Of a stretch of 64,000 nucleotides of DNA, positions 23,435 through 25,812 are shown in pieces. The notes below the pieces were generated by a model that had not been told where the DNA came from, did not search any database, and saw only the letters and a program-made list of their open reading frames with translations. How positions within the stretch are numbered: position 1 is the first letter of the stretch; every line of letters starts with the position of its first letter. A program made the translations under genes and the position numbers. The stretch lies in the NCBI RefSeq assembly GCF_041886205.1, contig NZ_CP169029.1; one strand, 5' to 3'. The DNA is from Escherichia coli. Lineage in GTDB: Bacteria > Pseudomonadota > Gammaproteobacteria > Enterobacterales > Enterobacteriaceae.

Positions 23435-24283
23435 CTAATACATATTCAGTATGTAAGTGAACCGGCAGGTGGAATCTATGGGCTGCTGTGCGGTTGTATC
23501 CACCCGCAACTTCATATCATGAAGTTCTTTATCAGTAACGGGATGCGGTTCTGGCGTGACCGTCACTTTGGCATCGTCACAGCCCGAAGTGGAGAAGGTC
23601 ACCTGCTGTGCAACAAAACGGCAGTAAGCACCACGCTCGTCATATTTACTGCCGTCGCATAGTTTCCCACCTTCCATCAGGTAAGTTGGCAGCGTTTGTT
23701 CAATGATACCGCCCGTCGATTGCAATCGCACCAACTTGTCGTGAACGACCGTATTTTCATTCCAGGAAACATCATACGGTGCCAGAGGAATGGTTGGACA
23801 CGTTGAACTCACCTTTGTCGGGCCTGTATAAGGTGGCAAGCCTTTATTGCTATCTAGCTTGGCTGTACTCGTTATATAAGAGGAAATTATCCACGGACAA
23901 CCGTGTAAATCACCGTCATAAAAAACGTCAAAAGCCAGCTCAGTACAAAACCAGTCTGTTTGTGAGTTTAGAGTGTCATGTTCTGCGAGGCCCGGACAAG
24001 TCGAATCAGGAAGTGTAGTATTACCATACATTTCTAAGACAGGGGCTGCGCCACTCCCGGTCCACGACACTAAAGGAACCGCCTTAAGTATATAAGACGA
24101 AGAGGAATATATACCCGTATCAACACCTTCGGCAGTGGCGACGATGAGAGTAAATTGATAGTCAGTGAACCCACCGGTCGTTCCCGCAGGAACATAAAGC
24201 CTGGCGATCTGTGTCTTGGCCTGCACCCCGGTATTCATTAAGATCAGCAGCAGAACACATAAAATGTAACGTACTATTTTCAT
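23435..24283 (-). CDS. putative fimbrial tip protein/adhesin, Cys-rich, last gene of operon
   Basis: ORF track 23435..24298 (TTG); ATG MKIVRYILCVLLLILMNTGVQA gives a signal peptide; operon-terminal position; no canonical pilin C-terminal motif seen. Confidence 0.6.
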   Translation of the reverse strand: MKIVRYILCVLLLILMNTGVQAKTQIARLYVPAGTTGGFTDYQFTLIVATAEGVDTGIYSSSSYILKAVPLVSWTGSGAAPVLEMYGNTTLPDSTCPGLAEHDTLNSQTDWFCTELAFDVFYDGDLHGCPWIISSYITSTAKLDSNKGLPPYTGPTKVSSTCPTIPLAPYDVSWNENTVVHDKLVRLQSTGGIIEQTLPTYLMEGGKLCDGSKYDERGAYCRFVAQQVTFSTSGCDDAKVTVTPEPHPVTDKELHDMKLRVDTTAQQPIDSTCRFTYILNMY

Positions 24284-24284
24284 T

Positions 24285-24824
24285 TTAAATATACTCAAAA
24301 GTTGCCGTCAGGCTGGCAGTGAATTCACCGATCGTCACTTCACGACCGCTTTTCGCCTGGATCCAGGCCCTGAAGTTAATGTCATTGTTACCGTTGATAA
24401 GCGCAAAGGTCGCCCCGGTGGGATTGTTAATATTCACCCGTGTTCCGTCGAGGGTTTCCATCCCTATCCCCACCCCCTGCGCGGTGGAGGTGTCATCGAC
24501 TGCCAGAAACCCCGGCTGGCCGCTGTCTTCGATGCCGCTCAGCGTGACTTTGACGTTGTATCCCGCCGGCCCTTTGCAGTCTTTCAGCTTAAACACAACC
24601 GGCAGGTGCGCGGATTGCCCGGCGACCATCAAATCCCGGTTGCTGACGGTGGGAAAATGGATTTCTGCCAGATTGGCACCGTCCACCACCAGCGTGCAGG
24701 ATTTACTCAGCAGGTTGCCGTAAAAATGCAGGTTGTTATCTACCGCCAGTGCACCCGTGCTGGCGGTCAGCAGCAGGCCCGCCAGCAGCGCGTAACCGGG
24801 CAAATAAGTGCGTGCTGTTTTCAT
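24285..24824 (-). CDS. fimbrial minor subunit, pilin-like
   Basis: ORF track 179 aa; signal peptide; C-terminal pilin-type beta-strand ...ASLTATFEYI; ATG verified. Confidence 0.75.
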   Translation of the reverse strand: MKTARTYLPGYALLAGLLLTASTGALAVDNNLHFYGNLLSKSCTLVVDGANLAEIHFPTVSNRDLMVAGQSAHLPVVFKLKDCKGPAGYNVKVTLSGIEDSGQPGFLAVDDTSTAQGVGIGMETLDGTRVNINNPTGATFALINGNNDINFRAWIQAKSGREVTIGEFTASLTATFEYI

Positions 24825-25309
24825 TGGTAATCCACCCGTAAGGTTGCGTAAGCAGAAAAATTCGTGTCCGTCAGCACCGCGTCAGGCGCTTTTACCGGCA
24901 CCGCCTCCAGCTTCGGCTTCTGGCTAAAATCGGTGGCGTTAATGGAAAGTGGCGTGTTCAGCTTAAAACGCTGACCGTCGTGCTGAAGCTCAATTCCGAA
25001 GCCCGGCACGTCTGTCTCGATGGCCGCATCGTTGTAACTGGTTGCTGTCCCCGTCCAGGTGAGCGTCATCTCCCAGTCGGGGTCGCGCTCATTGGTTTCG
25101 CAACTCAGTTCGTATGCCACTTCCTTACGACCGTAATTGCCGTCAATGCTGTCGATAATGACATCGCGAAATTCCACTTCAATGGTTTGCCCGCCGCTGA
25201 TGCTACAGGCGGGTGGTGATACCAGCGTACCATGGAAAGCGATGTCCTCGTCGGCAGCCAGAGCCTTGCCCCAGCAGGCGCACAGTAAAATAAGCGTGAG
25301 TTTTTTCAT
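24821..25309 (-). CDS. fimbrial minor subunit, pilin-like
   Basis: ORF track 162 aa; signal peptide MKKLTLILLCACWGKALA; C-terminus ...ATLRVDYQ; ATGA overlap with next gene. Confidence 0.75.
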   Translation of the reverse strand: MKKLTLILLCACWGKALAADEDIAFHGTLVSPPACSISGGQTIEVEFRDVIIDSIDGNYGRKEVAYELSCETNERDPDWEMTLTWTGTATSYNDAAIETDVPGFGIELQHDGQRFKLNTPLSINATDFSQKPKLEAVPVKAPDAVLTDTNFSAYATLRVDYQ

Positions 25310-25812
25310 TGGTAATCCACCACCATGGTCAGACTGGCGTTAAATTCCGATGGCGTTAACTGCACTCCGCTCTGCTTTACCGGCACCGCTTTCAACTGTG
25401 GCTGAGTATTAAAATTAAAAGGCGTCCAGGTATTTTCACCGACCGCAAACAGGGAATTATCGGCGGCGTTTTCTATCCGCACCCCTAAACCTGCAATATC
25501 CGTGCTGAGAACCGTTTCCCCGTTGATAACAGTCGTGTTGCCTTTAAGCTGCATCTGTAAGTCATCGCTGACTTTATTGCCACAGTTGAGGGTGTATTTC
25601 GCATCCTGTCGGTAACTGGTGCCATCGATCTTGTTGATCACCACATTGCCAAATTCCACCGCGCTTCCCTTCACGGAGCACGGCGGCGGGCCATCGACCA
25701 GGATTCGCAGCGTCATATCCACCTGCTTAATGTCACTGGCAACGGCAACATCGCTGCCCCCCCATCCGGCCAGCACCAGCAACCCCGCGCCCGCTAAAAA
25801 CTTGTGACTCAT
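25306..25812 (-). CDS. fimbrial minor subunit, pilin-like
   Basis: ORF track 168 aa; signal peptide; C-terminus ...ASLTMVVDYQ; 4-nt overlap with next gene. Confidence 0.75.
   Translation of the reverse strand: MSHKFLAGAGLLVLAGWGGSDVAVASDIKQVDMTLRILVDGPPPCSVKGSAVEFGNVVINKIDGTSYRQDAKYTLNCGNKVSDDLQMQLKGNTTVINGETVLSTDIAGLGVRIENAADNSLFAVGENTWTPFNFNTQPQLKAVPVKQSGVQLTPSEFNASLTMVVDYQ

Follow-up and report, generated by a model that had tools for sequence, protein, structure and literature searches.

An Escherichia coli chromosomal window, by which we mean the whole analysed stretch of 64,000 nucleotides (nt) of contig NZ_CP169029.1 (assembly GCF_041886205.1), contains a seven-gene fimbrial operon of the chaperone-usher type on its minus strand (29884..23435). 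The four distal genes of this operon, encoding the minor pilins R, Q and P and a tip adhesin, follow each other stop codon to start codon, and it is probable, at roughly 0.7, that they form a block coupled by termination-reinitiation. Three elements together lead to this reading: the geometry of the junctions, the gradient of Shine-Dalgarno (SD) signals along the block and published experiments on other E. coli gene pairs. The gene identities, junction geometry, conservation across genera, synonymous constraint at the junctions, SD gradient and lack of RNA structure at the junctions are all directly observed. Translation of Q, P and the tip gene would accordingly be driven by reinitiation rather than by independent initiation, in a way that would be relevant to the supply of subunits.

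In the proposed course of events, ribosomes would load de novo at the strong SD sequence in front of R. Those reaching the UGA of R would reinitiate at the overlapping AUG of Q, aided by a weak internal GGUGG motif, and the same would be repeated at the junction between Q and P. Past the UAA of P, reinitiation at an AUG situated 1 nt downstream would yield the adhesin, the gene of which has no SD sequence of its own.

Overlapping E. coli gene pairs have been found to be strictly coupled through termination-reinitiation by Huber et al. (PMC6728339), and the efficiency of coupling drops steeply as the distance grows (PMC10666635). The pairs investigated, hyfH-hyfI and menD-menH among others, are co-directional, with -4 or -1 overlaps and a variable SD motif inside the upstream gene (PMC6728339, PMC10666635). 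The genes of the window are likewise co-directional, with spacings of -4, -4 and +1 nt. Such coupling often, though not necessarily, involves an SD motif near the end of the upstream coding sequence; one is present before Q and P and absent before the tip gene. Whereas the pairs of Huber et al. have been tested experimentally, the window has a chain of three junctions, between genes for exported pilins, that is known from sequence.

Stop and start codons of the distal genes

The original prediction described stop/start junctions linking fimbrial minor subunit genes and a tip gene, and gave no strand. All three junctions are present, on the minus strand, and the nature of the genes is backed by Pfam and NCBIfam (three PF00419 members and one PF11245 member). 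The predicted boundaries also hold in RefSeq, which has the same -4, -4 and +1 arrangement in the two closest genomes, in one canonical yfc locus and in the K-12 reference. The elements of the block are the following, in the direction of transcription; the energies are those of the anti-SD duplex, that is, of pairing with the 3' end of 16S ribosomal RNA, and aa stands for amino acids.

25817..25823, minus strand: SD sequence GGGAGGG before R, within the 15-nt spacer between the chaperone gene and R; -11.2 kcal/mol
25306..25812, minus strand: minor subunit R, StfE/YfcR-like, 168 aa; Pfam Fimbrial E 5.6e-16; best NCBIfam match StfE, E 1.5e-45, below cut-off
25317..25324, minus strand: SD-like GGTGGTGG in the 3' end of R, 7 nt upstream of the start of Q; -9.6 kcal/mol
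25309..25306, minus strand: junction 1, ATGA (plus strand TCAT), a 4-nt overlap of the R stop (TGA 25308..25306) and the Q start (ATG 25309..25307)
24821..25309, minus strand: minor subunit Q, StfF/YfcQ-like, 162 aa; Pfam Fimbrial E 9.1e-14; best NCBIfam match StfF, E 5.4e-41, below cut-off
24832..24837, minus strand: SD-like GGGTGG in the 3' end of Q, 7 nt upstream of the start of P; -7.2 kcal/mol
24824..24821, minus strand: junction 2, ATGA (plus strand TCAT), a 4-nt overlap of the Q stop (TGA 24823..24821) and the P start (ATG 24824..24822)
24285..24824, minus strand: minor subunit P, StfG/YfcP-like, 179 aa; Pfam Fimbrial E 2.1e-16; best NCBIfam match StfG, E 1e-42, below cut-off
24287..24281, minus strand: junction 3, TAA-A-ATG, read from the sequence, with the P stop at 24287..24285, A at 24284 and the adhesin start at 24283..24281, 1 nt past the stop
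23435..24283, minus strand: tip adhesin of the StfH/YfcO family, DUF2544, 282 aa from the ATG at 24283; Pfam PF11245 E 1.6e-67

Since their NCBIfam scores stay below the cut-offs, the pilins R, Q and P are relatives of the Stf/Ste proteins and were rejected as equivalogs. An NCBIfam search with the tip adhesin gave no match; its homologues are all named as members of the StfH/YfcO family, and the 282-aa product from the ATG at 24283 is identical to the public protein P0001 (100% identity and coverage). In the open frames of Q and P no start-type codon precedes the overlapping ATG, which leaves no alternative start that would retain the signal peptide. Each of the three ATG codons opens a sequence typical of a Sec signal peptide, as read from the translations: MKKLTLILLCACWGKALA in Q, MKTARTYLPGYALLAGLLLTASTGALA in P and MKIVRYILCVLLLILMNTGVQA in the tip adhesin.

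The two ATGA junctions (24821-24839 and 25306-25324) share an identical stretch of 19 nt, GGTGGATTACCAATGAAAA, which encodes Val-Asp-Tyr-Gln-stop overlapping with Met-Lys. Recent gene conversion was rejected as its origin, the flanks being only about 40-65% identical and the R and Q proteins, which are paralogues, 39%. The shared junction is thus, on comparison of these sequences, a reflection of old paralogy plus constraint and not of recent exchange. No other same-strand -4 overlap occurs in the region of about 70 genes that corresponds to the window. Unidirectional gene pairs of E. coli overlap most often by 4 nt, and 707 of 2,987 such pairs (24%) lie within -8..+6 nt (PMC10666635). One -4 overlap alone is unremarkable; its conservation, as described below, is far beyond chance.

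The strength of the ribosome-binding signals falls along the block, from R (-11.2 kcal/mol) through Q (-9.6) and P (-7.2) to the tip gene (-2.2), against a background mean of -4.3 kcal/mol. The tip gene is devoid of an SD sequence not only here, the values over all loci ranging from -0.9 to -3.2 kcal/mol. Consensus scans for promoter- and terminator-like sites showed no excess over shuffled sequences (8 versus 7.5 and 9 versus 8.8), and the sites that fall in the block are all weak. Internal promoters or terminators between the four genes find no support from these scans, which would suit co-transcription of the block.

Conservation of the junctions

An alignment of 15 diverse tip adhesins was used to fetch 14 loci from contigs representing one genome per species. 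Together with the Stf operon (fhuB-hemL locus) and two E. coli loci, this makes a set of 17 loci, from Escherichia coli, E. albertii, E. whittamii and other Escherichia species, Citrobacter, Klebsiella spallanzanii, Enterobacter and the Stf operon. Clustering by the Q protein gives 13 groups when the threshold is 90% identity and 8 when it is 70%.

All 48 junctions of these loci lie between -4 and +2 nt, with no spacing above +2. The boundaries proposed earlier would have been refuted by orthologues whose starts differ and do not overlap, and they came through this comparison unharmed. Between R and Q the spacing is -4, with caATGA, in 16 of 16 cases (15 of 15 loci plus Stf). Between Q and P it is -4 in 14 of 15, the remaining one being Stf with CAG-TAATG (-1); caATGA is present at this junction in all 14 assessable loci besides Stf. 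The distance between P and the tip gene is +1 nt in 13 loci, 0 in one, -1 in Stf and +2 in two loci (or -4 via an alternative ATG).

At the codon level, the terminal glutamine codon is CAA and the stop codon TGA in 29 of 29 ATGA junctions, while internal glutamine codons of the same genes are CAG in 199 and CAA in 67 cases. The tyrosine and aspartate codons adjoining the terminal CAA vary freely. A synonymous test was applied to those alignment columns of R, Q and P, 100 in total, where the residue never changes although its codon could. A single codon is used in only three of these: the two terminal CAA codons and one GTG, at position -5, within the SD-like GGTGG upstream of the Q start. Synonymous sites are saturated everywhere except at those forming the overlapping start signal. 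The Q/P junction of Stf, the sole lineage without ATGA, serves as an internal control for the constraint on CAA-TGA, because there the codons have become CAG-TAA and a tight -1 overlap has been retained.

Some of the retrieved material is of a different kind. In Citrobacter youngae (locus L014, about 2370-2606) the Q-like gene is truncated, its open frame having 129 codons versus about 160 elsewhere, indicating a decaying copy of the operon. Genes of the yfc fimbrial type were also encountered on contigs of a Collinsella sp. metagenome-assembled genome (L008, L010 and L011) and on a 469-nt contig (L016) of a Terrisporobacter mayombei assembly. The genes are enterobacterial and the host assemblies Gram-positive, and binning or assembly contamination is almost certainly responsible.

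The same arrangement can be recognized in known systems. The K-12 operon yfcOPQRSUV, located between smrB and sixA, has the gene order and domain content of the window operon, and its reference annotation has identical spacings for yfcR/yfcQ (-4), yfcQ/yfcP (-4) and yfcP/yfcO (+1). The adhesin allele of the window differs from K-12-type YfcO, to which it is about 41-42% identical (P0111). The operon stfACDEFGH, of the Salmonella/Citrobacter type, has the same gene order as well, and all its distal junctions are tight: stfE/stfF has the caATGA overlap of the window, while stfF/stfG and stfG/stfH have a -1 overlap, TAATG, with CAG-TAA where the window has CAA-TGA. The Stf adhesin is only 35% identical to that of the window.

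Other fimbrial operons are less tightly packed. In the fim operon for type 1 fimbriae (fimAICDFGH) the spacers are +9 (fimD/F), +12 (fimF/G) and +19 nt (fimG/H), and in the yad operon (yadCKLM-htrE-yadVN) they are +11 (yadM/L), +26 (yadL/K) and +49 nt (yadK/C). Both operons have distal minor tip subunits plus an adhesin as in the window, but with another gene order and other adhesin families. By this comparison, tight packing is specific to the Yfc/Stf family and not a general fimbrial trait.

Proposed reinitiation and alternative explanations

Instead of serving coupled translation, the overlaps could be historical by-products of compaction among paralogous pilin genes, with their Tyr-Gln-stop and Met-Lys ends, each gene being initiated independently and the overlap having no regulatory role. 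The prevalence of the -4 class in E. coli (PMC10666635) and the VDYQ*/MK junction common to the paralogues R and Q are in line with this explanation, as are the SD-like motifs of -9.6 and -7.2 kcal/mol placed 7 nt upstream of Q and P. However, it leaves unaccounted for a tip gene that is SD-less in 17 of 17 loci and always lies -1 to +2 nt from the upstream stop. Furthermore, no lineage has moved past +2 nt at any junction despite the saturation of synonymous sites, the loss of ATGA in Stf was answered by another tight overlap, and the pilin genes of fim and yad tolerate spacers of +9 to +49 nt. Neutral compaction is, for these reasons, an unlikely explanation of the whole pattern.

A classical alternative mechanism of coupling (reviewed in PMC6728339) is that upstream ribosomes melt a hairpin hiding the downstream start, after which new 30S subunits initiate. 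The SD-like motifs before Q and P would suit such a mechanism. However, the folding of 100-nt RNAs spanning the junctions does not surpass that of shuffled sequences (z = +0.68, -0.08 and +0.40), and the tip start offers a free 30S subunit no SD sequence. RNA secondary structure was accordingly rejected as the basis of coupling at the junctions, and unmasking of this kind is very unlikely.

Finally, the tip gene might begin at an in-frame TTG (24298) with a 14-nt overlap with P, which is extremely improbable even though no start-type codon comes earlier in the open frame and this TTG is present and in frame in most loci with +1 spacing: it arises from the conserved Phe-Glu pair of P, encoded by TTT-GAG, is absent from loci L004 and L014, where phenylalanine is encoded by TTC, and is out of frame in L006, L013 and Stf (spacing 0, +2 or -1), while the ATG exists in all loci and is the start used by RefSeq, K-12 and protein P0001. 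As its in-frame position is not conserved, the TTG was rejected as the likely adhesin start. The earlier claim that upstream TTG codons in the list of open reading frames (ORFs) are probably not the real starts thus applies to the tip gene; for the three minor subunits it misses its target, these being listed with ATG already. A second TTG, at 28807, where the list begins a 738-aa ORF for the usher, is an artefact of an amber codon upstream. A GTG open frame of 134 codons (24319-24723, plus strand) runs antisense to P and is most likely there by chance.

Several considerations weigh against termination-reinitiation as set out above. For these particular genes the case is built on sequence features. 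The SD-like motifs at good spacing before Q and P could support independent initiation. C-terminal Tyr-Gln and N-terminal Met-Lys are general features of pilins and signal peptides, respectively, which eases the origin and the retention of ATGA. The invariant CAA-TGA indicates that the start is real and the overlap ancestral; it is no proof of functional coupling, as conservation of the ATG is expected for any start. In addition, the yfc operons of laboratory strains are described as cryptic (PMC3559732). The strain analysed here probably has an usher pseudogene and an operon unable to assemble pili alone; because of the nonsense codon concerned, any assembly-related benefit of coupling would be moot here. 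The rationale that has been offered for gene overlap presents a further difficulty. Overlaps are enriched among the subunits of heteromeric complexes, with co-translational assembly as the explanation proposed (PMC10666635). Pilins are exported and assembled in the periplasm, and this rationale therefore does not apply to them.

It had also been suggested that the overlaps set subunit stoichiometry, and they may have some bearing on it. In Pap and Fim pili, subunit order and tip copy number are largely set by the specificity of donor-strand exchange at the usher. It is more plausible, and probable, that the wide gap between major and minor subunits is set by a hairpin (29311..29286) that follows the gene for the major subunit. 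The most that coupling could do is to even out, or put a ceiling on, the supply of tip subunits.

If termination-reinitiation does operate, the subunits of the tip fibre would come from one ribosome stream in linked, non-increasing amounts, and there would be no adhesin unless its upstream partners are translated. Spacers or tags inserted at the junctions would then be expected to abolish adhesin expression. If coupling were demonstrated, the block would be a clear case of reinitiation in a chain of several genes, by which the supply of exported pilus-tip subunits is controlled. More tentatively, it is possible, though less likely than not, that the Yfc/Stf family as a whole possesses a hard-wired four-cistron cascade of reinitiation, with one strong entry site, three stop/start junctions and an SD-less adhesin gene. 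Such a cascade would have the adhesin translated only by ribosomes arriving from upstream, with its supply capped at or below that of the adaptor subunits, and it would explain why the junctions have stayed within -4 to +2 nt over at least four genera while the adhesin gene is swapped as a cassette. It would be a design not found in the Fim and Yad operons.

The junction pattern as such is already contained in the K-12 yfcOPQR annotation, and the mechanism is a textbook one, known in kind. The main value of the present analysis is correct annotation, the true starts of four fimbrial genes being confirmed and the TTG starts at 24298 (adhesin) and 28807 (usher), taken from a mechanical ORF list, being recognized as artefacts; there is little significance beyond this.

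The operon and its chromosomal setting

The gene order of the operon, namely major subunit, usher, chaperone, three minor pilins (R, Q and P) and a DUF2544 adhesin, is that of the Yfc/Stf type, and Pfam assigns four pilins to PF00419, one major and three minor, whose translations begin with sequences resembling signal peptides. Its proximal elements are:

29318..29884, minus strand: major fimbrial subunit, YfcV-like, 188 aa, first gene of the operon; Pfam Fimbrial PF00419 E 1.1e-14; annotated as 'fimbrial protein' in the closest strains
29286..29311, minus strand: terminator-like hairpin with an 11-base-pair stem (7 G-C pairs) followed by a T-run, between the major subunit and usher genes; found by consensus scan
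26591..29236, minus strand: usher gene, 881 codons, with an amber codon inside; Pfam Usher (PF00577, E 1.3e-184), PapC_N and PapC_C on the 738-aa remainder
25828..26571, minus strand: periplasmic chaperone, 247 aa; Pfam PapD_N E 1.8e-36 and PapD_C E 8.6e-14

The stem of the hairpin is kept in canonical yfc through a compensatory change from G-C to A-T, as seen in the alignment. It is likely to act as a transcriptional attenuator that would set the ratio of major to minor subunits.

The amber codon of the usher gene is codon 56 (TAG 29071..29069, minus strand) and corresponds to CAG in relatives, according to alignment and translation. The long untranslated stretch past it may reduce downstream transcription via polarity, and the coupled block in this genome is probably a relic unless another usher complements. 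Usher lesions have arisen independently elsewhere: the yfc usher of K-12 is also a pseudogene, with an internal stop at codon 579, a lesion distinct from that of the window, and strain OW1E2 has a stop at codon 379. The usher of strain wlxctx60 has a 117-nt in-frame deletion, and those of 6EVA and Eco_24-2013 are intact. In all of these strains with an usher lesion, the minor-subunit genes and the junctions are intact.

The adhesin end of the operon has a mosaic structure. The locus was compared with L022 and L021. Against OW1E2, identity is 97-100% along P as far as about 24365, drops to 32-43% over the N-terminal half of the tip adhesin and rises again to 58-70% in its C-terminal half. Within E. 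coli, tip adhesins are 41-67% identical to that of the window. These identities suggest that the adhesin gene, the final ~25 codons of P and the junction between the two genes are exchanged as one cassette. A breakpoint exactly at the junction was considered and rejected, since identity to OW1E2 falls from ~80 nt upstream, inside the 3' end of P; the junction thus travels with the adhesin.

The operon is inserted between yoaC (whose side is at about 22.7-23.1 kb) and yoaB (beyond 30.3 kb) and not at the canonical Yfc position between smrB and sixA. Strains wlxctx60 and 6EVA share with the window, at 100% identity, the flanking genes pdeD, sdaA, nudL, pabB, yoaH and yoaC. Among 5,426 complete E. 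coli genomes, about a dozen have an operon more than 90% identical to this copy; the yoaC-yoaB position was confirmed in two of them (6EVA and wlxctx60) and the canonical position in one. Chaperone-usher fimbriae of E. coli are typed by their place in the chromosome and by the phylogeny of their ushers, and the survey of Wurpel et al. (2013) describes Yfc as a core-associated type at a fixed locus, without mention of yoaB/yoaC (PMC3559732). Nucleotide identity to canonical yfc loci ranges from about 84% to about 96-97%, and given this range of 84-97% the usher of the window operon is likely to group with YfcU. We take Yfc to belong to the pi clade of Nuccio and Baumler. The window copy is thus a rare yfc/stf-type operon inserted between yoaC and yoaB.

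A search of the 23-30 kb part of the window with Rfam at gathering thresholds found no known RNA family. Elsewhere in the window, gathering-level matches were obtained for the cspA thermoregulator (9525-9985, plus strand, 132.9 bits) and the small RNA sroD (36229-36314, plus strand, 115.2 bits), both of which are expected in that part of the chromosome.

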